Assembly (NCBI GenBank): GCA_965247685.1
Contig: OZ252021.1
Location: 660,001 to 692,000, forward strand
DNA: 32,000 bases
Origin: Bdellovibrionales bacterium
GTDB lineage: Bacteria; Bdellovibrionota; Bdellovibrionia; Bdellovibrionales; UBA1609
Direction of reading: 5' to 3'
Both the position numbers and the translations under genes were made by a program. The notes under the pieces were generated by a model, which did no database searches, had not been told where the DNA came from, and saw only the letters and a program-made list of their open reading frames with translations. This document shows positions 9,880 to 31,884 of the stretch, one piece after another (the stretch's first letter is position 1; the number at the start of each line of letters is the position of its first letter).

Positions 9880-10010
9880 TTTTTAAGTTTATAGACTAAA
9901 ATTGAAGCAATGCATATAATCGCTAGTAAATACTAATATTTGTATTTCATAGTCTTGAAAGTTCGTGGGATGAGTTGTTTTCTCGAGATTCATAGACTTA
10001 CTATTATTCT

Positions 10011-11057
10011 ATGAGTTTTCGTTATTTAAAATTAAGAATACGTAATTTTAATGCTTTTTTTATCGTGATAGGCCTCATTGCTTTGTGGTTAGGCTGTAGC
10101 CCTGTGGATGGTAAATATGAAGAACCTGAAGACAGGAGAAGAAGAGGTGCAGATGTTCCAAGAGATCTAAGCAAAAACTTTGAGTTTGGTGAAGAAGATG
10201 ATGAAAATGGTGACAGCGGTTACTTTTTAAATAAACAACGTGATGATAAAAAAGAGTCTGCAATAGAAACATTACACGTGACTCCTCGATCACAAAAAAG
10301 AGGTTTGTCTAAAAAAATTGACTTTTTGTTTTTTGTAGATGCCTCTAAGAAAACTCAGCCTTTTTTAGACTTTGAAAATATTAATTCTAAGTTTAATTCT
10401 TTTATTCAACAGCTTGAAAATAATGATATCGCCTGGAGGTTTTATTTTATTTCTGCAGCAGCAAATAAAAGTGATAATCCTTTGAATAATGGAAAGCCCT
10501 TTTTTTTAGAAAGGGATGGGGCTCTTATTCGAACAAACTTTTTATCTCCAACCAACTTAGAACCTTATGATATGCAAGGAAGCATACACTCCGTTTTTGT
10601 TGATACTTTATCTTATAACAGTGTCTCTGGTGGTAAAAAAGCTAGATGCGATCTTCCTCCTTACTGTCATATAGAAAATGAGATAAGACCTTTGAGATCT
10701 TTTTTTAGATTTCTTTCTAGTTATGCTAACATCTTAAGGGAAGATGCGGATTTAGTTTCAATTATTATCAGTGCAGGAGATGAGAAGCGATTTGGTAGAT
10801 CAAAAGAGCCATTAGATTCTGTATCGGTTATGGAATCTTTTAATGAGAAATTTTCTAAAGATAAAAACTTTTTTTCCATCAGTATTGTTGTTAAAGTAGG
10901 AGAAGAGGGTGAGTGTGTAAATAGTAAACTTAGAGCAGCCTCTCGTATTCCGCAGTTAAGTTTATTAACTCAAGGAACAGTTATCAATATTTGTAGTACA
11001 CAACAAGATGGGTATGGAAAACCTATCGTTGAGTTTTTAAAAAAGAAACAACAATAA
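10011..11057 (+). CDS. Exported lipoprotein, vWA-like paralogue A (degenerate metal site)
   Basis: 348 aa. Lipobox LWLGC (Cys29) followed by an acidic/basic low-complexity linker. The C-terminal ~240 aa align by eye with ORFs 12066-12890 and 15450-16652: FLFFVDASKK, WRFYFIS, RCDLPPYC...EIRPL, DADLVSIIISAGDE, FFSISIVV, GTVINICS. Confidence 0.6.
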   Translation: MSFRYLKLRIRNFNAFFIVIGLIALWLGCSPVDGKYEEPEDRRRRGADVPRDLSKNFEFGEEDDENGDSGYFLNKQRDDKKESAIETLHVTPRSQKRGLSKKIDFLFFVDASKKTQPFLDFENINSKFNSFIQQLENNDIAWRFYFISAAANKSDNPLNNGKPFFLERDGALIRTNFLSPTNLEPYDMQGSIHSVFVDTLSYNSVSGGKKARCDLPPYCHIENEIRPLRSFFRFLSSYANILREDADLVSIIISAGDEKRFGRSKEPLDSVSVMESFNEKFSKDKNFFSISIVVKVGEEGECVNSKLRAASRIPQLSLLTQGTVINICSTQQDGYGKPIVEFLKKKQQ

Positions 11058-11079
11058 AATCTTAACAAGTAGTTCAGTT

Positions 11080-12072
11080 GTGCCTCAGACTCTACTCACA
11101 GGAATACAAGCAACAGGTAACCCTCATTTAGGGAACTATACTGGTTCTATTCAACCTGCATTAGAATCCATTCAACAGCTCAGTAATAGCTCGAGTTATT
11201 TGTTTATAGCAGATTATCATGCGTTAACTAATGAGCAAACTCAAAAAAACTTAAAAGAAAATATCTACAAGGTAGCTGCGACTTGGTTGGCTTGTGGAGT
11301 GAATCCAGAAAAAACTATTCTTTATCGTCAGTCCGATATTCCTGAAGTTTTTGAGCTCTATTGGATATTGTCTTGTGTGACTCCTAAAGGACTTTTAAAT
11401 CGTGCCCATTCGTATAAAGCTTATATTCAAAAAAACCAATCTAGGAAAAAAGAAGAAATAGATTTTGGATTAAATATGGGTATTTTTAATTACCCTTTAC
11501 TTATGGCCTCAGACATTTTACTTTTTCAAGCAGATATAATTCCTGTAGGAAAAGATCAATTGCAACATTTAGAAATGACTCGAGATATAGCTTTGAAATT
11601 TAATAAAAACTTTAGAACAAAGATTCTTATTCCCCCTAAGGGAAAGATGAGCCATCAAGGAGATTTACTTGGATTAGATGGTAGAAAAATGAGTAAAAGT
11701 TATAATAATGACATCCCTATCTTTTCAAGAGAATTAAGAAAATACATTATGAAAATTAAAACAGATTCACTTCCTTCTGAGGCTCCAAAAGATACAAAGA
11801 CTTCTATAGTTTTTCATCTATATAAAGCATTTGCTTCTTCAGAGCAAATTCAGCTGTTTCAAAATAGACTTCAAAAAGGGATAGGTTGGGGGCAAGCTAA
11901 AGAAGAGCTTTATCAATTGCTTGAGAATCACTTTGGACAAAAAAGAAAGGTTTATGAATCTTTAATCTTGCAACCAGAGAAAATAGATCAGATTTTAAAA
12001 GAGGGGGCAAAAAAAGCGAGAGTTAAAACTCAAACAATGATTCAAGAGATTAGGAAGATTATTAATCAATAA
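11080..12072 (+). CDS. trpS: Tryptophanyl-tRNA synthetase
   Basis: 330 aa with a GTG start. TGIQATGNPHLGNYTG (HIGH-type), VGKDQLQHLEMTRDIA and the KMSKS loop GRKMSKS. Length and motifs match TrpRS. Confidence 0.93.
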   Translation: MPQTLLTGIQATGNPHLGNYTGSIQPALESIQQLSNSSSYLFIADYHALTNEQTQKNLKENIYKVAATWLACGVNPEKTILYRQSDIPEVFELYWILSCVTPKGLLNRAHSYKAYIQKNQSRKKEEIDFGLNMGIFNYPLLMASDILLFQADIIPVGKDQLQHLEMTRDIALKFNKNFRTKILIPPKGKMSHQGDLLGLDGRKMSKSYNNDIPIFSRELRKYIMKIKTDSLPSEAPKDTKTSIVFHLYKAFASSEQIQLFQNRLQKGIGWGQAKEELYQLLENHFGQKRKVYESLILQPEKIDQILKEGAKKARVKTQTMIQEIRKIINQ

Positions 12073-12890
12073 TAATTAAATCTTACAGTTTCCATAATGT
12101 ATTTAGAAGCAGCTTCATAAGAATCCAAGCAAAGGTTAAAAACTTCTCCCCCTGTTTGCTTAGAAAGTTCGATGCTTTCTTGAGACAGTAGTGCTTCACC
12201 AAAAATGGAAAGCAGGAAATTGCTTTTAATTTTTTCTTCACAAAATCCTTCTGTAACAGTGAACGTGAGAACTATTAAATCTTTATTAGGGAAGGTGTAT
12301 TCAAATACATTAATGACTTCTTGGGCTGTTGTGGGAACTTTTTCCCCTCTTTTATTAGACTCCTCATTATCAGTCAAGATAAGTACAAAGAGTTTATCCG
12401 TCTCTTGTCGAATCAGCTCATTTTGTTGTGATTTAAAATATTGCACCAGAGCACCCAAAGGTCTTTCCTTTCCATTTCCACAAAAAGGAAAATATTTACA
12501 CCTAAGAGTGTTAAGTGAATTCACCAAAACCATACGAGGATCATCTAAATCTCTATGAATAAAAACCCTTTCATCAGAGTTTTGTGAATCATATTTCAAT
12601 GGAATTAAATATTTGGATCCATCCTCAGAAGTATTGCTATCGACAATGCCAAACCTGAAATTTGTACCCTCTAAAGGAGAGAGAAAGTTTATCCATTTGG
12701 ATTCAATATTGTTCATAATAAAATACATGGACATTGAATTATCTATCACGATTAAGCCATCAATCATTTCGGATGGGGGTGGGGACTTAAAGTTCTCAGT
12801 CACTTTAAATTCAACCCTATCCGACTCTTCTCCATAAGTAGAGTTTAAACTCAGTGATAAAATTAAGGTCAATAATAAACGCAAAAACAT
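12066..12890 (-). CDS. Secreted vWA-like paralogue B
   Basis: 274 aa with a type I signal peptide (...LSLNSTYG). LIVIDNSMSM (DxSxS MIDAS-type), FRFGIVD, RCKYFPFCGNGKERPL, TDKLFVLILTDNEE, IVLTFTV, GEVFNLCL. Confidence 0.6.
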   Translation of the reverse strand: MFLRLLLTLILSLSLNSTYGEESDRVEFKVTENFKSPPPSEMIDGLIVIDNSMSMYFIMNNIESKWINFLSPLEGTNFRFGIVDSNTSEDGSKYLIPLKYDSQNSDERVFIHRDLDDPRMVLVNSLNTLRCKYFPFCGNGKERPLGALVQYFKSQQNELIRQETDKLFVLILTDNEESNKRGEKVPTTAQEVINVFEYTFPNKDLIVLTFTVTEGFCEEKIKSNFLLSIFGEALLSQESIELSKQTGGEVFNLCLDSYEAASKYIMETVRFNYY

Positions 12891-13100
12891 GGTTAAGCAT
12901 TCTAATGGAGGGTGTGAGTAAACACAAGAGAGGTGTCTTAATAAAGAATAGATCTTTTATACTTTATTGACATATGTAGTGAAAATTTTTCATGGTTAAT
13001 GAACATTATGCGAAATTTGCACATTCTCTAATTTTCATTATTTATTGTTTCTTTCTTTTTTTCTCTTCTTAAGTTATCATTACCAGTCATTCTTAGATTC

Positions 13101-13134
13101 TCGGATAGAATCTACAGTCGGATAGAATCTACAG
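13101..13134 (+). repeat. Perfect tandem direct repeat, 2 x 17 bp (TCGGATAGAATCTACAG), overlapping the palindrome TAGATTC-N7-GAATCTA (13094-13114)
   Basis: Read directly from the sequence. Copy 1 is 13101-13117 and copy 2 is 13118-13134. It ends 14 nt before the ATG at 13149, just upstream of the AAGGA ribosome-binding site. Confidence 0.9.
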
Positions 13135-13148
13135 ATAAGGACTTTAAT

Positions 13149-14465
13149 ATGTTTTTTTCAAGAAAAAAGAGTATTTTCGTACTCATTCCTTTTCTTATAT
13201 TTCTTATATGTCCATGGGTTTTTGCGAGCTTGGACTGTTCCTCCGCGATTGAGAAATTAACAGATAAAACTTCTCACCCAAAGCTTTCTCTTCAAAAGCC
13301 AATTAAAGCCATTCCTATTCATGAAGAAAAAATGTTAAGAGAAGAAGGGTTCAGCGAAAAATTCACTGCAGGTTTAGATGCAATCAAAAATATGATTGTA
13401 TTAAGAAAAAATATGGAAAAACTCAGTCCAAGACTGGATCCTTATAAAACACACATTCCCTATTTTGCAGATTTAATTCCTATTCATGTGGAATGGATTC
13501 GTAAGGGGTTGAATCAACAAGAAGAAAAATCTAATCGGTTTAATTCATCGAGATATAGCTTATTAGACTCCTTTTATAAACATGCTTTGAGTGTAGCAAA
13601 AGGCAAGAAGTTAACCTATGCTTATTGGATTCTATGGAATGAGTATTTATCAAACATTGCTATTGCTTATCATAGTTTTACAGTGGAAAGTTTTCTCGCA
13701 AATCTTAAATCTCTTGAACTTTATAAAAACCAAATAAAAGGGTTGAAGGGTTTTCAATTCAATCAACTTATGGATCAATTTCCTGATTTTTTAGCACTTT
13801 CTATTCCGAATAATGAATTAGGATTTATAACTCTTAATCGAGCGGCAGATAAAAAATTCGTTCCTATACGTTTGGTTAACGATGATCAGGGTTTTTTATA
13901 CGGTAAGGGTGTACAAATGAGACTCTCTGAAATTCTTATTCATGATATAACACCTACAAGAAACAGTAATTATGGTGAGCATAATTTGTCTAACATTAAT
14001 GAGAACTATGATTTTCTTTCCTCTTTTAAAAAGGAGCAAAGAGAAATTTTTGAGTTAATACTATTTTATATCACTCATGAAACCCCTCTATTGCTGGAGA
14101 ATTCTCTAGCAGAGGTTATAAAGAGGAGTGCAGTAGTCCAAAGAAACATGACTTTTAGGAATGAGAACATCTCTTTTGTTGAATTGTTATTTTTTCAAAG
14201 AGAGGTTAAGATTTCTCGAGACATTGAGTCTCCTCGTGATATGCGGTTTATTAAGAGTCCTGACATCATTTTACAAAACATCAGCGACAAATATTTAAAT
14301 TGGTTTAACTCTGTGGCCCTTAAATATTTCGATAATGATTTCAAAAGATCCTATTCGATTCCAGACTTACCTATGCTCAACCAGGCAGAACAAGAAGTTT
14401 TGAATTCGTTCGCTCGCCAGTCCAACCTCCTCCGACAAAAAAAAGTATTTGAAACCAAAACTTAA
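13149..14465 (+). CDS. Hypothetical secreted protein (orphan, no recognisable domain)
   Basis: 438-aa ORF with an AAGGA RBS 8 nt upstream and an N-terminal signal peptide (IFVLIPFLIFLICPWVFA-SL). It is long and uninterrupted in AT-rich DNA, where stop codons are frequent by chance. I recognise no motif. Confidence 0.6.
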   Translation: MFFSRKKSIFVLIPFLIFLICPWVFASLDCSSAIEKLTDKTSHPKLSLQKPIKAIPIHEEKMLREEGFSEKFTAGLDAIKNMIVLRKNMEKLSPRLDPYKTHIPYFADLIPIHVEWIRKGLNQQEEKSNRFNSSRYSLLDSFYKHALSVAKGKKLTYAYWILWNEYLSNIAIAYHSFTVESFLANLKSLELYKNQIKGLKGFQFNQLMDQFPDFLALSIPNNELGFITLNRAADKKFVPIRLVNDDQGFLYGKGVQMRLSEILIHDITPTRNSNYGEHNLSNINENYDFLSSFKKEQREIFELILFYITHETPLLLENSLAEVIKRSAVVQRNMTFRNENISFVELLFFQREVKISRDIESPRDMRFIKSPDIILQNISDKYLNWFNSVALKYFDNDFKRSYSIPDLPMLNQAEQEVLNSFARQSNLLRQKKVFETKT

Positions 14466-14586
14466 TTGAGGTTGCAGATTGCTATTTGTGGTTTTCTTGG
14501 TTTCGATTAATATATTTGTAACGGTTGATTTTATTTTTTAGATTTTTTTCTTGAACATATGAAATTTATATACTAAAAAGCTATTA

Positions 14587-15291
14587 ATGATGAGATTTAT
14601 TTACAAATGTATTCTTTTTTCCACTGTCATACTTATTTTTAATCACTGTAATTCTTTAGAAGAGGATTTAAATAAAACATCAAAGCCTAATTCTTTTATC
14701 ACGGTGAATGAAGTTATTCCTTCTGCTGTATTTGATATTAGATATTATTCAAAGAATAACTTTATTGGAGTAAGAGTCAATGGTTATGAGAAACCTCTAT
14801 GTATTCTTACTGAGTCAGCTGTTTTAGCTTTGACAAAAGTACAACAAGAAATAAGTCAGCAAGGATACACACTTAAGATTTTTGATTGTTATCGTCCTCA
14901 ACAGGCTGTTGACCACTTTGTTCAATGGGTAAAAAACTTAAGTGATCAAAAAATGAAATCTAAGTATTATCCAAGTGAAGATAAATCTCAACTGATCGAA
15001 AAAGGTTATATTGCTGATCAATCTGGTCATAGTCGAGGAAGCACCTTGGATTTAACTTTAGCTAGAAAATCTGATTCCATAGAATTAGATATGGGAACGA
15101 CTTACGATTATTTTGACTCAATTTCCAATACTGCGGATTCACGTATTACAGCAGAACAAAAAGAGAATCGCCTTCTTCTGAAGAGTGTTATGGAAAAACA
15201 TGGTTTTGTAAATTATGAAAAAGAGTGGTGGCATTATACTCTAAAAGATGAACCTTATCCTGATATGTACTTTAATTTCTCTGTCAAATAA
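14587..15291 (+). CDS. ddpX: D-alanyl-D-alanine dipeptidase, VanX/DdpX family (peptidase M15D), with an N-terminal export signal
   Basis: 234 aa. FDIRYYSKNNFIG, CYRPQQAVDHF, Zn-ligand block SGHSRGSTLDLTL, and catalytic EWWHYTL. The first ~20 aa are hydrophobic, ending ...LIFNHC. Confidence 0.88.
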   Translation: MMRFIYKCILFSTVILIFNHCNSLEEDLNKTSKPNSFITVNEVIPSAVFDIRYYSKNNFIGVRVNGYEKPLCILTESAVLALTKVQQEISQQGYTLKIFDCYRPQQAVDHFVQWVKNLSDQKMKSKYYPSEDKSQLIEKGYIADQSGHSRGSTLDLTLARKSDSIELDMGTTYDYFDSISNTADSRITAEQKENRLLLKSVMEKHGFVNYEKEWWHYTLKDEPYPDMYFNFSVK

Positions 15292-15388
15292 GGGTTAGAA
15301 AAGAAGATAATAAAAATCAAGATCATTGTTCTTTATTAATTAATTGTACTATCTCCTGTAACAGAATATTATTTTTCACACACATTGC

Positions 15389-15424
15389 AAAAAAAAAGAG
15401 AGTTTTGAAACTCTCTTTTTTTTT
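15389..15424. terminator. Bidirectional rho-independent terminator between convergent genes
   Basis: Perfect palindrome A9-GAGAGTT-TTGA-AACTCTC-T9. Either strand yields a GC-containing stem followed by a 9-U tract. It sits between the stops of 14587-15291 (+) and 15450-16652 (-). Confidence 0.8.
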
Positions 15425-15449
15425 AAATCTGTGAATAAAAAACTTTTAA

Positions 15450-16652
15450 TTATAATCGATTTTGTATAATAGTATCAGCTACTACAGAGTAATCATCTGA
15501 GCAGATGCTGAAACTAGAGCCATCTGTTTTTTTTGTGAGTAAAGTCACCTCAGGAGCAAAATAGCCTTCACCCGCATGTTTTCTTATTTGTCTTTGACAC
15601 TTAGAAGAGAGAACTGTAAAAGAGTGGACGGTTAGATTCTTCCCTTCAAAGTGATTACCAAAAGTCTGAAGGAATGATTGAGCTGTGGTCTGCCGTTCTC
15701 TAATTGTTCGATTTTCGTGACTGTCTGTAATAATTAATACCACCAAGTCTGCATCTGGACGCATAAAGCGTGATCCTGTATCTGGCATTTTTGAAAACAA
15801 CAAATATTGGGATAAACTTTTAAGTACTCTTTCTTGAGAGGTCCCGCAACCAGGAGAGAATCTACACGGAGATTGTTTGTTACTCTTAGTGATCGTATCT
15901 ATGAATAATCGATTCTTAGATCGAGTCTGTTTTGTAATATAACGTCTGTTAAGTACAAGAGCTCCATCCATTTCAAGTGGCATAAGTAGTTTTTTCTTCC
16001 CTCTTCGAGTAGGTTGGGAATCTAAAAATGCAACTCTCCAATCGAAAGGCTTTAACTTGTCTAAAAAATGAGCAAATTTTAAATCATTTGATTTTAAGAT
16101 GCTCCTCATAGAATATGAGTTATCAAGCACCATCAAAAGATCTATTTTTTCTTTACCACTCATTTGCTTATTTTCACTATTTTGTTCATTACCATTTAGA
16201 TCAGAGAATATTTTTTCTTGAGATGATTGATCTTCCTCGGTTACTTCTGCAACAGACGAATGATCTTTTTTATCCGGCTCGCAGTCTTCTGGTCGAACAA
16301 GATCACTTTGAACTCTAGAGTCTCCTCGTTTCCTTCTTTTACCTTCTCCAGTTCTTGGTCTTATTCCATTGTGGTGTCCTTGCACCTCTTTGTGAAGTTT
16401 TTGAGTCCATTCTGGAACTTCATCCCCACAAGGATCTTGTTGTGCTATATCCATTTGTGTTTTAGATAGTGCTTTAGAACTTCCTCCTAAGTTTTTATCT
16501 AGAGTGGAATCCTCGATTTCAGCTGCCAAACCTGTCATCATATATTGATCTAAATCATTCATACTTTGAGGTGTACCAACAGATTCAACCTGCACTTTTC
16601 CACCACATCCAATAAAAATAAAAAGAGTAAAAAAAATAAAATATTTGCCCAT
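15450..16652 (-). CDS. Exported lipoprotein, vWA-like paralogue C
   Basis: 400 aa. Lipobox FIFIGC (Cys16) and a ~150-aa charged low-complexity linker. Then IDLLMVLDNSYSM (DxSxS), WRVAFLD, PCRFSPGCGTSQERVL, DADLVVLIITDSHE, TVHSFTV, GSSFSICS. Confidence 0.6.
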   Translation of the reverse strand: MGKYFIFFTLFIFIGCGGKVQVESVGTPQSMNDLDQYMMTGLAAEIEDSTLDKNLGGSSKALSKTQMDIAQQDPCGDEVPEWTQKLHKEVQGHHNGIRPRTGEGKRRKRGDSRVQSDLVRPEDCEPDKKDHSSVAEVTEEDQSSQEKIFSDLNGNEQNSENKQMSGKEKIDLLMVLDNSYSMRSILKSNDLKFAHFLDKLKPFDWRVAFLDSQPTRRGKKKLLMPLEMDGALVLNRRYITKQTRSKNRLFIDTITKSNKQSPCRFSPGCGTSQERVLKSLSQYLLFSKMPDTGSRFMRPDADLVVLIITDSHENRTIRERQTTAQSFLQTFGNHFEGKNLTVHSFTVLSSKCQRQIRKHAGEGYFAPEVTLLTKKTDGSSFSICSDDYSVVADTIIQNRL

Positions 16653-18767: not shown

Positions 18768-19325
18768 ATGGTTCAGTTTTATAAATTACACCTTTTAAGG
18801 TTCTTTTTGTTTTTTTTAGTTCTCGTTATTTTTACTGTTTTACAAAGTTCAACGATTCTTCAAAGTATAAACCCTAATGTCTCTCCTCAATTATGGGTGA
18901 TCCTCATAGCTTATCTTTCTATTTATCATCATCCTGCTTTAACTGTGATTATGATTTATCTCACAGCACTTTTTTACTCGACCTTAACATCTTTTAGTTT
19001 TGCTCAAATCTTAGTTTTAAATTCTATGATTTTTCTTATTGCTCAGATGAGTGATAAATTAAATTTAAAAAATAAAAATATGTTTTTTCTATATTGTGCC
19101 TTATTTGTACTATTTTTGCCTTTGCTCAAATGGATAATTGTTCCTTTTGTGGTTAATGAACTAAGTAGATCTTTTTCTATTGTGAACTTGTTGATCACAG
19201 CATTCCTCACATTTGTATCTGCTGCTATTATCCATTTTTTATTCTTACGAATTGAATCTTGGATTCAATATTTAGAGGGTGTAATGGAGAAAAAAAATAT
19301 GAGGAAAAACTTTTATGTTTTTTAA
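18768..19325 (+). CDS. mreD: Rod shape-determining protein MreD
   Basis: 185-aa highly hydrophobic polytopic protein between mreC and the PBP2 gene. It overlaps the PBP2 start by 11 nt. Assigned mainly on position and topology. Confidence 0.7.
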   Translation: MVQFYKLHLLRFFLFFLVLVIFTVLQSSTILQSINPNVSPQLWVILIAYLSIYHHPALTVIMIYLTALFYSTLTSFSFAQILVLNSMIFLIAQMSDKLNLKNKNMFFLYCALFVLFLPLLKWIIVPFVVNELSRSFSIVNLLITAFLTFVSAAIIHFLFLRIESWIQYLEGVMEKKNMRKNFYVF

Positions 19326-24131: not shown

Positions 24132-25067
24132 ATGCTAGGTTTTAAAAGCTTATGGACAACTTTATCTGACTGGAAAATCGTAGGGCAAACTCTTATTCAA
24201 AGTATTCGTTTGTATCCCCGCCTGATTTTATGGAATTCTCCATTGGTGATTATTGTTGTAGTTTTGTCCTATATTTATTTTAATTTTATTATAAATTTTG
24301 ACAAACTCTTTATAGCTCCCTCTTTGAAAATGATGTATCTGTCTCTGATTCAATTCTGCTTTATGGTCATCGTTTGGTCTTTCGTAATATTTCTTATTCC
24401 TTATCAACTTTATAATTACTTTATGAAGCAAAAAGATTCAAAAATCTTAAAATTTAAGCAATTTTTAAAAAAGCATCTTTGGCCTGTAATTATAGAGACT
24501 TTGAAAGCTTTTATTGTTGCAGGAGGGTATGCAGGAGCAGGATTAGCAACTTGGTGTATTCTTTTTGTTCTCTCTGTATATTTTATCGATGGTTTAAGAG
24601 AGCAAGTGCAAGAGTTAGTTATTTCTATGATGACTTTGCTGGTGCAATCTCCAGAAAGTCTTAACATGAAGAGTTTTCTTGGAATTGTAATGAATTTAAA
24701 AGCTATAGGGATGCTTTTAATTTTATTTTTCCTTTGTTTAACCCCTTCTATTATAAAAGCTATTCAGTACATTATAGTTCCGTTTGTGGTGATTTTTAAT
24801 AAACAATTTTCTGTTGAAAGAAAATCTTTAAAAATATCAGAAAAATTATCCAACGGCTTAATTCTTCCATTTTTTCTGTTATTCTTATTATTTTACTTTC
24901 TCAGTTTATTTATTCCTTTAGATTTATGGTTTCAACAGATGGTAGGTGAACAGAATGTGCTTTTTGCTGCTTATATAAAGATCTTTTTAGGTTCATTGCA
25001 GTATATTTTTTATACTACTTTCTTCTGTATGATTTATTTTAATCAAGACAAAACAGTTCTTGAGTAG
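24132..25067 (+). CDS. Hypothetical polytopic inner-membrane protein (orphan)
   Basis: 311 aa with about 6-7 hydrophobic helices and no motif I recognise. GGAGG-like RBS (cggaggttctggag) upstream. Its TAG stop overlaps the GTG start of murI (TAGTG). Confidence 0.55.
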   Translation: MLGFKSLWTTLSDWKIVGQTLIQSIRLYPRLILWNSPLVIIVVVLSYIYFNFIINFDKLFIAPSLKMMYLSLIQFCFMVIVWSFVIFLIPYQLYNYFMKQKDSKILKFKQFLKKHLWPVIIETLKAFIVAGGYAGAGLATWCILFVLSVYFIDGLREQVQELVISMMTLLVQSPESLNMKSFLGIVMNLKAIGMLLILFFLCLTPSIIKAIQYIIVPFVVIFNKQFSVERKSLKISEKLSNGLILPFFLLFLLFYFLSLFIPLDLWFQQMVGEQNVLFAAYIKIFLGSLQYIFYTTFFCMIYFNQDKTVLE

Positions 25068-28105: not shown

Positions 28106-31033
28106 ATGGTTTTCAGAATTTTAAGTATCATCATTTTTGGTTTTGCAAGTTTTACAATTCTTGCTGAAGACGACTTGGAACGTATTAAAGTAACAGGTTC
28201 TCACATTAAAAGGCTCAACCAAGAAGGCACTTCACCTGTGACTGTGATTAATCGAGAACAATTGGATCTTTCTGGCTATTCCTCTTTAGCGGATATCATT
28301 CGTGATTTAGGTATTGCAACTTCAGGGGTTTCTCGAAAATTCTCTTTAGCCGATGGGAATGGGCTTGCTGCAACTACTTTTCGAGGTTTGCCTGTGGGTT
28401 ACACAATCATTCTACTTAATGGGAAAAGAATCGCTAATAGTATTGATCTGAACTTGATTCCTAAGTCTGCTATCGAAAGAATAGAAATCATCAAGGACGG
28501 AGCGTCTGCAATTTATGGTTCAGATGCTATTGGCGGCGTGATGAACTTTATTACCAAAAGGGGAGATGTGGGAGCTCAGTTTTCGGTGGGAGGATATTTA
28601 CCAGAACCTTTTGTATTGCCTAAAAAATACCTTAAATATCAAGGCTGGAGATCCGAAAGATGGGCAGATGTTCCTCAGTACCAAGATAAAATCTTTGGCT
28701 TCAAAGGGGGAGAGTCTGCATTTGCTGATTTCACCTATGGTTGGAGCGGTGATACCCATCAAAGTCTTTTAGGAGTAAGTTTTCAAAGAAACCAAAGTGT
28801 GGAGATGCAACAACGCCCTCACCTTATGGGAACAGATGCTGATAAGGCCTCTTTTTCACGTTTTGGCAGTCCAGGAAGTTATTCGCTAGGAGGACCATTT
28901 AACCCTATGCCAGGCTGCCCTAAGAACAAATTGAAAGTGCTGGATGAAAATAAAGGTACCTTGTGTGTTTTTAATTACTTTGGTTACATGAAGTATAATC
29001 CTACAGTGAATGCTTTAAGTGCATTTATAAATACAGATTTAGATTTAGATGATGATAACGAGCTATTCATTCAGGGTATGTATGCTTTAGAAAATAGTAC
29101 AGGAACTCTCGCTCCTCCTCCACAGAGTTTGGCCAAGAAAGGTTTTATCACAGTGTTAGGTGAGGTAAGTGATACACGATCAGGGATATGGAATAAATGG
29201 GTAACTGCTTTACAGAAAGAAAGTGGCCTTAATTTATCTGAGTTAGATACATTTGATTATCGTTTAGTGGATGAAATAGGTGCAGGTCGAAGGATACAAG
29301 ATGTCAATAAACATTCTTTTATTGTGCAAGCTGAATTGACTCATTATCTTTCCGACAGTTGGAATATAGATGCTTCATTAAATAGCAGCGGCTTCTATCT
29401 GGCTCAAAAGGGTAAGAATTACGCCTTAATTAGTAAATTATTGGAATTAGATGAAAATGGTAAGGCAAAGTTTAATCCTTTTAGACCGAAAGGTGAAAAA
29501 AGTGATATTACTTATGCTCTTTATAATCCAACAACGGATGTGATGCACTCTATGACCTACTTTGAAGGATCGATAAATGGAGAACTTCTTTCTTTAGGAT
29601 CTTTAGGTACTTTAAGTTCGGCTTTTGGAGGTCGAGGGGGTTATGAGTACTGGAGTGCAGAATTTGATTCTCAAACTTGGGATACCAAAACAAATATCAA
29701 CGATCAGTGGGGTGGAGGTTCTGGAGAATCTGGATCTGGCGGAAGATACTGGGTCACTGGTTACTCAGAATTTGTTCTTCCTCTTCACTTCAACTTTAAT
29801 CATATCTTAGAGCTGCAAGCTGCGGGAAGTATAGATCACTATCAGTATGTGGGCTTAGCTGCGAATCCAAAATTGGCATTTAAATGGATGCCTGGTAATA
29901 ATATGATTCAAGTCAGAGGTTCCGGAGGAACAGGCTTTAAAGCTCCAGCTGTTGGATATACTCTTCAAAATTACCGTGTCATTGATCACCCTTATGGAGT
30001 AGATTATCGAGTTTGTCCAGGAGCTAAGAAGGACTGCGACAAAGAAACACTAAAACCGACCCAAGCTCAGTATGAATTTGTTTATTTTGGCAATCAAAAA
30101 CTAAAACCTGAGCAATCAAAATTCTACAATATAGGAATCGGTTTAGAGCCTGTTAAAAATGTATTCTTAGGATTGGATTACTTTGTGAATCAAGTGGATA
30201 AACGGATTTTGGAGCCTCAGATAAGTGAAATCACGGATTTAGCGCGTTACCATCCTGAAGCTTTTAAAGACGAATTTGAAGCAGAGTACTCTACCGAAAT
30301 TATAGATGATAGCGACGGAAGCTCTCTAAGAGCTATTAAATCTAAGATTTATAATTTTGGCTCAGTTAGAAATCGAGGTTTAGAAGCGAGTTTGAATATG
30401 CAGTTTCCAGTTTTTACCTCTAGTAGTTTTTTCTTAGGAACTCAAGCGACCTACTACATTGAAAGTTTAGTGAAGCGTCCTTACTTGGAAGAAGAGTTTG
30501 TATCCCAACTTGGAAATTGGGGGGTTCCTCCTTACGTGCTTCAATCTAGTTTGGGGATGAAATATAAAAATGGAGTTCAATGGTTTTTATCTGGTAAGTT
30601 GACAGGTCAATTTAATCAAAAAGCTTCAGACAAAGAAGCTCCGGATGATTTTTTAAGAAGATCTGTAAAAATGGCTGTAAAGACGGTTCAAAAGCAATTC
30701 TCGAAAAACAAAAAAGAAGTTAAAAAAGCTTTGAAGTCTGAAGTTTGTGTGGCTTATAATGATGCGTCTGAAGGTGCTATTTGCCAAGTGGCTCATCATT
30801 TGAATTTAGACTTTAGCTTATTCTTGCCTTTGTCTGCTGTGGATGGGGATCCTAATACAAATTTACTTTTCAAAATTGAAAATGTTCTTAACACTGCACT
30901 TCCAGAGCATCGTATAGGTGGGAATCAGCAGGAGAATATCAATGGAATCCGTGCTAATGGGTTTGTACCTGTAGGAATGTATAACGGTGTGAATGGTCGA
31001 GCTTTTACAATTCAAGTGAATCATAAGTTTTAA
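28106..31033 (+). CDS. TonB-dependent outer-membrane receptor
   Basis: 975 aa with a signal peptide. TonB-box/plug region LERIKVTGSHIKR... IERIEIIKDGASAIYGSDAIGGVMNFITK. Long beta-barrel with alternating-hydrophobic strands and a terminal aromatic (...VNHKF). Confidence 0.9.
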   Translation: MVFRILSIIIFGFASFTILAEDDLERIKVTGSHIKRLNQEGTSPVTVINREQLDLSGYSSLADIIRDLGIATSGVSRKFSLADGNGLAATTFRGLPVGYTIILLNGKRIANSIDLNLIPKSAIERIEIIKDGASAIYGSDAIGGVMNFITKRGDVGAQFSVGGYLPEPFVLPKKYLKYQGWRSERWADVPQYQDKIFGFKGGESAFADFTYGWSGDTHQSLLGVSFQRNQSVEMQQRPHLMGTDADKASFSRFGSPGSYSLGGPFNPMPGCPKNKLKVLDENKGTLCVFNYFGYMKYNPTVNALSAFINTDLDLDDDNELFIQGMYALENSTGTLAPPPQSLAKKGFITVLGEVSDTRSGIWNKWVTALQKESGLNLSELDTFDYRLVDEIGAGRRIQDVNKHSFIVQAELTHYLSDSWNIDASLNSSGFYLAQKGKNYALISKLLELDENGKAKFNPFRPKGEKSDITYALYNPTTDVMHSMTYFEGSINGELLSLGSLGTLSSAFGGRGGYEYWSAEFDSQTWDTKTNINDQWGGGSGESGSGGRYWVTGYSEFVLPLHFNFNHILELQAAGSIDHYQYVGLAANPKLAFKWMPGNNMIQVRGSGGTGFKAPAVGYTLQNYRVIDHPYGVDYRVCPGAKKDCDKETLKPTQAQYEFVYFGNQKLKPEQSKFYNIGIGLEPVKNVFLGLDYFVNQVDKRILEPQISEITDLARYHPEAFKDEFEAEYSTEIIDDSDGSSLRAIKSKIYNFGSVRNRGLEASLNMQFPVFTSSSFFLGTQATYYIESLVKRPYLEEEFVSQLGNWGVPPYVLQSSLGMKYKNGVQWFLSGKLTGQFNQKASDKEAPDDFLRRSVKMAVKTVQKQFSKNKKEVKKALKSEVCVAYNDASEGAICQVAHHLNLDFSLFLPLSAVDGDPNTNLLFKIENVLNTALPEHRIGGNQQENINGIRANGFVPVGMYNGVNGRAFTIQVNHKF

Positions 31034-31074
31034 GTGAGAGGAATCATTTTTAATTTTGAAGTTTATCTAAAGAA

Positions 31075-31884
31075 GTGATGTATAAAGTATTTTTATTGGT
31101 TTTAATATGGGGTGGTTTTTATTCCAACGCAAAAGAAACTACCCATTCTGTGGTTCAGGAGCAGGTTACAAATGATCAACTAGCTGCTCAGTCTCAAGAA
31201 ATAATTTCAAAAATTGCTAAAGAGAGTTTAGATCTTGCTAATGAATATCGCTCCGCTTTAGAAGACATTAATAATGTCCGCATTTATAATGAACAATTAA
31301 GAATCCGTATTGAATCTCAAAAAAAAGAAAAAGTATCTCTTCGTAAACAGATTCATGATGTTGAGAACATGGATACGGAAATTGTTCCATTGATGTTGGA
31401 GATGTTAGATGCCTTAGAAAAATTTGTTCAATTAGATATTCCATTTGAAAAGATAGACCGAGAAAAAACTCTAAAAGATTTACAGGCTATGATGGATCGG
31501 GCAGACGTAACTAATGCTGAAAAGTATCGAAGAATTTTAGAAGCTTATCAGATTGAAAGTGAGTACGGTAGAACCATTGGAGCTTATCGTGCTTTACAAA
31601 ATATAGAAGGAAAAGATCTAACAGTGGATTTCTTACGTCTTGGACGTTTAAGTCTTATTTACCAAACTTTGGATAAGAATAAGAGTGCTTATTGGTCTCA
31701 AGCTCAAAAATCTTGGGTAAAGATTCCTTCCAAATATAATCGAGCTATTTCTTTAGGTATTAAAGTGGCTCGCAATCAAACAGCACCTAACTTTGTGACA
31801 GCTTGGGTTTCTGCGCCTACTGAAAGCACAGTTCGACTGGAGTCTATGAAAGTGGAAACAGAAAGAGAAGGTGAGGGAGAATGA
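31075..31884 (+). CDS. DUF3450-family (TtpB-like) TonB2-system accessory protein
   Basis: 269 aa with a signal peptide and a coiled-coil N-half. The block YRRILEAYQIESEYGRTIGAYRA... DFLRLGRLSLIYQTLD matches my recollection of DUF3450. Located between a TonB-dependent receptor and an ExbB-like gene. The start is more likely the ATG at 31078 than the GTG at 31075. Confidence 0.7.
   Translation: MMYKVFLLVLIWGGFYSNAKETTHSVVQEQVTNDQLAAQSQEIISKIAKESLDLANEYRSALEDINNVRIYNEQLRIRIESQKKEKVSLRKQIHDVENMDTEIVPLMLEMLDALEKFVQLDIPFEKIDREKTLKDLQAMMDRADVTNAEKYRRILEAYQIESEYGRTIGAYRALQNIEGKDLTVDFLRLGRLSLIYQTLDKNKSAYWSQAQKSWVKIPSKYNRAISLGIKVARNQTAPNFVTAWVSAPTESTVRLESMKVETEREGEGE

Follow-up and report, generated by a model that had tools for sequence, protein, structure and literature searches.

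Three diverged, exported vWA proteins of a Bdellovibrionales bacterium and their distant kinship with the adhesin Bd0875

We have analysed a stretch of 32,000 nt from a Bdellovibrionales bacterium (UBA1609; assembly GCA_965247685.1, contig OZ252021.1, positions 660,001-692,000 of the forward strand), called the window below; the contig is 1.28 Mb long with a G+C content of about 33%. [quoted passage not shown] Our comparisons indicate that they arose by ancient duplication within a large family of exported, beta-integrin-like vWA (MIDAS) proteins found mostly in Bdellovibrionota. One of these proteins, Bd0875 of Bdellovibrio bacteriovorus, is a proven adhesin.

Results

Three exported paralogues around trpS

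The existence of three paralogous, exported open reading frames (ORFs) was borne out by their export signals and by pairwise BLASTP. Copies B and C align with an E value of 4e-29 (30% identity), A and C with 3e-13 (27%) and A and B with 1e-6 (24%), so that every pair in the all-vs-all comparison is significant; the alignments cover the entire C-terminal ~235-250 amino acids (aa). The six blocks originally matched by eye fall in the same columns of a MAFFT alignment. Exactly three copies were recovered from the window by tblastn and by a hidden Markov model (HMM) of the family run over all six-frame ORFs, with no fourth copy found by either method in the 32 kb. All motif coordinates given below were checked by translation.

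Copy A (10011-11057, forward strand) encodes a predicted 348-aa lipoprotein, recognised from its ORF, its homology to B and C and an AlphaFold2 model. A signal peptide with the lipobox LWLGC (10083-10097; Cys29, with Ser as the +2 residue) is followed by a charged tether of about 70 aa and a vWA domain (10311-11054; family HMM score 222 bits) whose MIDAS is degenerate. Loop 1 of the site reads DASKK (D110-A-S112-K-K, 10338-10352) and the beta4/loop-3 motif ISAGDE (10767-10784), in which the MIDAS Asp has become Ala while the trailing Glu is kept. The original prediction was right that this site is degenerate, but not that the MIDAS serines are lost: the Asp and the first Ser of D-x-S-x-S (D110 and S112) are retained, and it is the second Ser and the loop-3 Asp that are gone. 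The domain also contains the Cys loop CDLPPYC (C213-x5-C219, 10647-10667) and a second Cys pair (10914-10994) formed by C302 (10914-10916) and C328 (10992-10994).

Copy B (12066-12890, reverse strand) encodes a 274-aa secreted protein, recognised from its ORF and its BLASTP match to C, that is not a lipoprotein. Its type-I-like signal peptide, MFLRLLLTLILSLSLNSTYG (12831-12890; putative cleavage site), has a hydrophobic core (Kyte-Doolittle 2.5), no lipobox and no Cys at all, the whole protein having four. The N-terminal lipobox of the Bd0875 type is present in A and C and absent from B. The vWA domain (12069-12764; 220 bits) has an intact D-x-S-x-S in MIDAS loop 1 (DNSMS, 12729-12743), the beta4/loop-3 motif LTDNEE (12360-12377), the Cys loop CKYFPFC (C131-x5-C137, 12480-12500) and a second Cys pair (12129-12242) of C217 (12240-12242) and C254 (12129-12131). 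Right behind the signal peptide, residues 21-42 (12765-12830) hold a motif, [VI]EFxVxExFK, that is kept in three orthologues.

Copy C (15450-16652, reverse strand) encodes a predicted 400-aa lipoprotein, supported by its ORF, an AlphaFold2 model, Foldseek and the NCBIfam model NF052240. Its lipobox FIGC (16605-16616; Cys16, with Gly at +2) is followed by a polar tether of about 150 aa and a vWA domain (15453-16154; 263 bits) with intact MIDAS motifs, namely DNSYS in loop 1 (16110-16124) and ITDSHE at beta4/loop 3 (15714-15731). The Cys loop is CRFSPGC (C263-x5-C269, 15846-15866) and the second pair (15501-15599) consists of C352 (15597-15599) and C384 (15501-15503). The tether has a Cys pair of its own, C75 and C124 (16281-16430), around a basic KRRKRG stretch. 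This tether is poorly conserved otherwise, but residues 75-124 hold the motif DPCG[DE]E[IV]PEWTQ...SDL[VI]R..C, kept together with the Cys pair in three C orthologues; the pair may form a third disulphide or mark a processing or binding site.

Lipoboxes were tested with PROSITE PS51257, {DERK}(6)-[LIVMFWSTAG](2)-[LIVMFYSTAGCQ]-[AGS]-C close to the N terminus plus a K or R within the first 7 residues. The pattern is satisfied by A and C and by their orthologues in a total of three genomes, the other two being represented by two long metagenomic contigs, L001 and L002, used as syntenic comparison loci. The B orthologues of L001 and L002 bear a linker of about 55 aa, which window copy B lacks.

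A common vWA fold

AlphaFold2 models were made with family alignments for the vWA domains of copy A (residues 97-348; predicted local distance difference test (pLDDT) 91.2, predicted template modelling score (pTM) 0.91) and copy C (residues 165-400; pLDDT 84.7, pTM 0.87). In both models beta and alpha elements alternate as in a vWA domain, whose Rossmann-like alpha/beta fold has helices flanking a central sheet that is made up of five parallel strands and one antiparallel strand. Foldseek searches of the Protein Data Bank (PDB) with either model put integrin beta I-like domains at the head of the list, with E=1e-6 to 5e-6, a probability of 1.00 and a TM score of 0.45-0.54; the copy C model matched 6avq_B (E=1e-6). 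Von Willebrand factor (VWF) A1, mussel PTMP1, alpha2delta-1, PitA and complement C2a followed further down, with VWF A1, PTMP1, alpha2delta and C2a also at a probability of 1.00. We conclude that A, B and C have one common vWA fold, as had been proposed together with the DxSxS site, and we regard the homology and fold part of the adhesin explanation as practically certain.

Sequence-based searches were far less sensitive. No Pfam model matched A, B or C at E<=1, the VWA models PF00092 and PF13519 included, this branch having diverged beyond their present reach; the miss is no argument against the fold. A PDB sequence search, with C alone or with a profile of the trio, gave nothing significant (best E=0.5-0.8, including the DxSxS stretch of the group B Streptococcus pilus adhesin, 3tvy/3tw0). 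Scans of the three proteins with PADLOC, Pfam and NCBIfam produced no family-level assignment beyond weak matches to NF052240.

A family that includes Bd0875

NF052240, the 'MIDAS family adhesin' model of Bd0875, was matched by copy B (E=4e-4, 19.6 bits) and copy C (E=8e-5, 21.9 bits), with no match for copy A; none of the three matched NF033765, the model of the Myxococcus gliding protein CglD. Bd0875, a MIDAS lipoprotein adhesin of B. bacteriovorus HD100, localises to the predator-prey junction and depends on D66 and E213, the D66A and E213A mutants failing to complement (Tyson et al. 2024, PMC11003981). The relationship became much clearer in profile comparisons. When the alignment of the trio orthogroups was compared with six Bd0875-like proteins using hhalign, the two matched with a probability of 99.8% and an E value of 1.5e-27 over 219 columns (a second E value was 2.3e-28). 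The match is confined to the MIDAS domain (columns 61-308), which it covers motif for motif, both Cys pairs included. The motifs in common are DILxVxDxSxSM, a DW/YR-hydrophobic beta2 strand, the Cys loop followed by E-R/Q-P-L, FxRxxAxL-hydrophobic-S/T-D-x-x-E, K-x-L-x-V-H/x-S-I, a Cys, and G-x-x-x-S-I-C-x-x-Y. A chain of intermediate members connects the trio with the Bd0875-like group. The trio, in short, is a remote branch of the Bd0875/CglD-type beta-integrin-like lipoprotein adhesins. The label 'uncharacterised' from the original prediction is fair as far as Pfam is concerned, but does not hold at the family level, given a characterised member and a curated NCBIfam model.

The extent of the family was measured by an exhaustive HMMER search of 1.84 billion representatives (clusters at 50% identity) with a 17-sequence domain profile, which returned 5,072 representatives at E<=1e-3; tightening the threshold to E<=1e-10 left 1,412 of them, and to E<=1e-30, 352. 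A word-indexed homologue search had badly underestimated it, with 4 and then 14 matches. Among 47 diverse members, 36 match NF052240 (best E=1e-36), 8 match the VWA region of NF033765 and only 2 reach PF00092, at 2e-4. The matches to CglD lie in its VWA region (NF033765 positions 620-915) and score at most 54 bits; all ten Bd0875-like or intermediate members tested match this region. A search with bridging members collected 225 proteins, of which those with an organism name are all hypothetical proteins of Bdellovibrionales or Bdellovibrionota, and several bridging members score 219-247 bits across all 378 positions of the Bd0875 profile. Wherever source names were seen, family members are called 'hypothetical protein'. 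The family is all but invisible to the Pfam VWA models and could be given a curated domain model of its own.

In species-representative genomes, relatives occur in metagenome-assembled genomes (MAGs) of Pseudobdellovibrionaceae, Bdellovibrionales and Oligoflexales, and on one contig labelled Enterobacterales. This contig (L007, CAZVHW010000015.1), from an 'uncultured Enterobacterales bacterium' MAG, carries one family member; it is probably mis-binned, horizontal transfer being less likely.

Architectures fall into two main kinds. A short form ending at the vWA domain, like that of the trio, accounts for 89 of the 148 top representatives, with a median N-terminal extension of 112 residues (~69% polar), while 50 of the 148 carry a C-terminal extension of 40-90 aa of the Bd0875 type. 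The family comprises one class with a stalk, like Bd0875, and another that is tethered and stalk-less. A lipobox is present in 167 of 269 family proteins. A few of the 47 diverse members combine Ig-like repeats or Ca-tandemer adhesin modules with a vWA domain at the far C-terminal end, such as P0141 (2,476 aa); the same vWA domain thus serves also as the distal head of giant fibre adhesins. The repeats of these large proteins (P0141, P0133, P0149, P0066 and others) are of the Big_13, Big_6, Big_3_3 or Ca-tandemer type.

Two cysteine pairs are hallmarks of the family

The original prediction had singled out a Cys block as foreign to standard vWA domains. This was correct, although the spacing is C-x5-C rather than CxxxxC and the block belongs to the whole family rather than to the trio. 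A second Cys pair, near the C terminus, had gone unflagged. In column-by-column statistics over 268 members (numbering of copy C), C352 is present in 267 and C384 in 268, and C269 of the loop in 252. Both Cys of the loop are present in 249 members, 15 have neither and only 3 have a single one, with a spacing of x2 to x9 (x5 being the commonest). Counted over the whole domain, the Cys add up to an even number in 263 of 267 members. Such paired gain and loss is as expected of disulphide partners, and it fits the four disulphides predicted for Bd0875 as well as the dithiothreitol-sensitive mobility of CglB and CglD (see below). Both pairs are hallmarks of the entire family. At the metal site, D-x-S-x-S is intact in 229 of 268 members and degenerate in about 15%; 188 members have D and 70 have N as the loop-3 residue, and 256 keep the trailing E. 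The Glu of the E-R/Q-P-L motif behind the Cys loop, present in 225 of 268 members, is a candidate MIDAS loop-2 ligand.

Going by the order of secondary-structure elements in the copy C model, the C-x5-C loop comes after helix 2 and before helix 3, shortly ahead of beta4. In vWA domains, as in integrin I domains, this position is that of loop 2 on the MIDAS face. By alignment, the loop would correspond to part of the cap region of Bd0875 (aa 143-176), which flanks the MIDAS pocket. From the same order, the second pair would join the loops behind beta5 and beta6, next to the C-terminal helix. Movement of this helix switches affinity in integrin I domains, and the second disulphide might conceivably lock or tune such a switch.

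An old, maintained and fast-evolving trio

The gene order of the window, SurA-like, C, B, trpS on the opposite strand, A and FtsQ-FtsA-FtsZ, is the same in L001 and L002, where the C orthologues are 48% and 42% identical to copy C. The nine proteins of the three genomes form three orthogroups with 98-100% bootstrap support (B+C 84%, A+B+C 65%), one for each paralogue, which indicates that the duplications are older than the split of these genomes; they are probably specific to this lineage. The trio is thus an old and maintained expansion, as had been suggested. The degenerate site of copy A is also kept in its orthologues (DGSKH and DGSDT in loop 1; ISAIDE and ISAGDE at loop 3), arguing for a maintained state and not for decay.

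The vWA domains are 52-64% identical between genomes and the N-terminal linkers 19-36%, compared to 75-86% for neighbouring proteins including FtsQ, the SurA-like protein, MreC and PBP2. The trio therefore evolves markedly faster than its surroundings.

The gene for tryptophanyl-tRNA synthetase, trpS (11080-12072, forward strand; identified by PF00579 in the syntenic loci), is a neighbour only, and is 81% and 75% identical to its copies in L001 and L002. Copy A lies 22 nt upstream of it on the same strand, and the 3' end of trpS overlaps that of B by 7 nt. At the locus of a distant relative (L010, 11086-11108), a trpS gene whose product is only 58% identical to that of the window follows the single family member on the same strand, at a distance of 21 nt. 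Since the arrangement is the same there, the position of A is probably ancestral; for a putative adhesin gene and a tRNA synthetase gene, the association is surprisingly durable. Copy A is probably co-transcribed with trpS; a promoter and terminator scan of this AT-rich window was uninformative (11 promoter-like sites vs. 28 expected), the only site worth noting being one at 9892-9920 upstream of A.

Two forward-strand genes between B and C (13149-15291) do not belong to the module on the evidence of library scans and synteny. The first (13149-14465) encodes an orphan 438-aa exported protein that has no Pfam, NCBIfam or PADLOC match, and the second (14587-15291) a D-Ala-D-Ala dipeptidase (PF01427, E=5e-46). 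Both had been listed as members of the gene neighbourhood and were considered as conserved partners, but L001 and L002 have neither of them between C and B, so that the pair is a lineage-specific insertion; as partners they were rejected.

The other genes of the window include those for the SurA-like protein, a TonB-dependent receptor and MreCD-PBP2-RodA, as in a Gram-negative envelope. No Rfam elements or tRNAs were found in the window. A 185-aa ORF (18768-19325), located after mreC where MreD usually sits, has no Pfam match. A 311-aa ORF (24132-25067), flanked by genes for a Na+/H+ exchanger and glutamate racemase, has no Pfam match either; its position is kept in L001 and L002 (260 and 311 aa). 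The genes for a TonB-dependent receptor (975 aa) and then a DUF3450 protein (E=9e-76), at 28106-31884, form an outer-membrane uptake module in a genome that seems to be small.

Discussion

A putative role in surface adhesion

We estimate a probability of roughly 60% that A, B and C would act in metal-dependent cell-surface adhesion to prey, host or substratum. The adhesion-type role of the original prediction gains support from the homology of the trio to a proven adhesin and from its fast divergence, which is as expected for surface-exposed interaction proteins; the presence of the same vWA domain at the tip of giant repeat adhesins also counts in its favour. In the mechanism we propose, all three proteins would be exported by the Sec pathway, and A and C would be lipidated and sorted to the outer membrane, their +2 residues being Ser and Gly and not Asp. 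In Escherichia coli, Ser or Gly at +2 leads to outer-membrane sorting, a rule that may not transfer to this organism. The domains would be oxidised to form two disulphides, one stapling the helix 2-helix 3 loop and the other tying the C-terminal loops of beta5 and beta6 together. With a divalent cation held in the MIDAS, the vWA heads of B and C would then grip an acidic residue of a ligand on prey, host or substratum, as in Bd0875, giving catch-and-release adhesion, while copy A would bind without metal, or act as a partner or modulator. VWF A1 and A3 are precedents for vWA domains that bind independently of metal and without a MIDAS. The heads would sit on a flexible tether (A and C) or be released (B), with no small beta-rich stalk domain, unlike in Bd0875.

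A number of points weigh against this interpretation. At about 20 bits for B and C and no match for A, the window proteins are far below the curated equivalog cut-off of NF052240 (700 bits), and the trio are therefore not orthologues of Bd0875. They lack the small beta-domain, made up of N- and C-terminal parts, that is common to Bd0875 and Bd1483, because the proteins stop within ~10 residues of helix 7 and only the vWA domain aligns. Even in B. bacteriovorus, a phenotype was obtained for Bd0875 only out of four MIDAS proteins tested. A predatory lifestyle of the source is putative, and the orientation of A and C, towards the surface or the periplasm, is not readable from sequence. Finally, the proximity of the Cys loop to the metal site and the geometry of the disulphides are drawn from secondary-structure order and from the Bd0875 paper.

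Alternative functions

The alternative that survives best, though it is still an unlikely one, is that the lipoproteins face inwards and assist in envelope assembly or scaffolding in the periplasm, their vWA domains binding a cell-wall or division partner. The position of the genes between surA-mreCD-pbp2-rodA and ftsQAZ fits this idea, and the order of the SurA-like, C, B, trpS, A and FtsQ-FtsA-FtsZ genes is conserved in all three genomes; copy B is a soluble, secreted protein, one relative has a DsbD gene nearby, and surface exposure cannot be read from the sequence. However, synteny is to be expected anyway among genomes whose housekeeping proteins are 75-86% identical, and more distant members (at loci L009, L010 and L003-L008) are not found beside fts or mre genes. 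The vWA genes also evolve far faster than the envelope genes that flank them, the same domain tops giant repeat adhesins, and the characterised relatives, Bd0875, CglB and CglD, are all surface exposed (PMC11003981, PMC9946355).

A second alternative, which is compatible with adhesion, would have the three proteins assemble into a heteromeric complex in the fashion of integrins, with the MIDAS-less copy A as a regulatory or ligand-mimicking partner. The retention of the three orthogroups together in three genomes and the conservation of the degenerate site of A would be accounted for, as would the highly confident model of A, a sign that it is under selection; the strand-like N-terminal motif conserved in B, [VI]EFxVxExFK, and the fact that the best structural matches are to integrin beta subunits, which form heterodimers, point the same way. 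Yet the genes do not make up one operon, being on different strands with trpS between them and, in the window, a 2.1-kb insertion; L010 has a single copy within the 20 kb examined, and the roughly 15% of family members with a degenerate DxSxS have no evident partner. We consider such a complex doubtful, and hold the same low opinion of its fuller version, a minimal bacterial 'integrin set' of two tethered heads and one soluble head, with A as intrinsic ligand or regulator, in a stalk-less adhesin class that would be functionally distinct and previously undescribed. If this set were nevertheless real, its fast evolution would track the prey or host range of a reduced-genome predator or epibiont.

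It is less probable again that the proteins are substratum adhesins for gliding, riding on a Glt-type focal-adhesion motor like CglB and CglD, rather than adhesins for prey or host. Bdellovibrio does glide, and the family has a weak but consistent homology to the VWA domain of CglD; this amounts, however, to at most 54 bits against a cut-off of 400 for NF033765, no glt or agl genes are present in the 32-kb window or at the loci of relatives, and the trio has neither the COMP and EGF modules of CglD nor the beta-jellyroll of CglB. Two further candidates were rejected: a vWA protein of a defence system (no PADLOC match, and the proteins are exported) and a pilus tip adhesin of the PilY1 type (there are no pilus genes in the vicinity). 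As for a chance or compositional resemblance in a 33% G+C genome, perhaps with an unreal ORF among the three, the pairwise identities of 24-30% and the low-complexity N-terminal regions might invite it, but E values down to 4e-29, orthologues in two genomes, 1,412 relatives at E<=1e-10, the hhalign result and confident models refute it to the point that we give it next to no credence.

Significance of the family

Bd0875, which takes part in prey invasion by Bdellovibrio, is the only family member whose role has been demonstrated. It turns out to belong to a much larger group (the 1,412 representatives above, in 50% identity clusters) that is not caught by Pfam; neither the stalk-less branch nor the true size of the family is captured there or described in the literature cited here. 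The trio illustrates the tethered class well, combining a lipid-anchored protein (C) and a secreted one (B), both putatively MIDAS-active, with a lipid-anchored MIDAS-degenerate one (A). As such, it provides a natural test set for what a stalk contributes, for whether the disulphides fix the conformational switch of the vWA domain and for how MIDAS-less copies work. The three proteins are candidate attachment factors for an uncultured, small-genome lineage, without implying any new principle.

Comparison with known systems

Bd0875 is the closest of the characterised systems. Four disulphides are predicted in this protein and its cap is unique (PMC11003981); two of the four have counterparts in the trio, A and C share its lipobox, and the taxonomic range, Bdellovibrionota, is the same. 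The cap (aa 143-176) is missing from the trio, the extra residues of the Bd0875-like proteins facing gaps and C-x5-C standing against about C-x9-C plus an insert. The compact stalk of Bd0875 is replaced by a long polar tether (~70 residues in A, ~150 in C), and both copy B, which is not a lipoprotein, and copy A, with its degenerate MIDAS, are unlike Bd0875.

CglD is a lipoprotein of the outer membrane, as A and C would be, and has in common with the trio a VWA domain of the beta-I-like type, a MIDAS and disulphide-stabilised loops; both CglD and the window models match integrin beta3 (3fcs) best. It differs in its length (1,130 aa), its COMP-like Ca-binding repeats, EGF-like modules and beta-sandwich, and its partnership with the Glt gliding machinery. 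CglB of M. xanthus, with an alpha-I-domain-like VWA (PMC9946355), resembles the trio in its lipobox, its VWA domain with MIDAS, its structural disulphides and its role in surface adhesion; no match between the trio family and CglB was seen at the sequence level. Both CglB and CglD show mobility shifts on titration with dithiothreitol (PMC9946355; bioRxiv 10.1101/2023.10.19.562135).

The integrin beta I-like and VWF A domains (6avq_B, 3vi3_D, 3fcs, 1fns) are the best structural matches of both models and bind their ligands through a metal-dependent site of the DxSxS type. The identity to these eukaryotic domains is merely 9-16% and the disulphide pattern is another; the trio also lacks the hybrid, PSI and EGF context of integrins and an alpha-subunit partner, and its members are of bacterial lipoprotein type. 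On these comparisons, A, B and C are best classed as a new architectural variant within a known kind of protein, namely the MIDAS lipoprotein adhesins of beta-integrin-like type from the former delta-proteobacteria.

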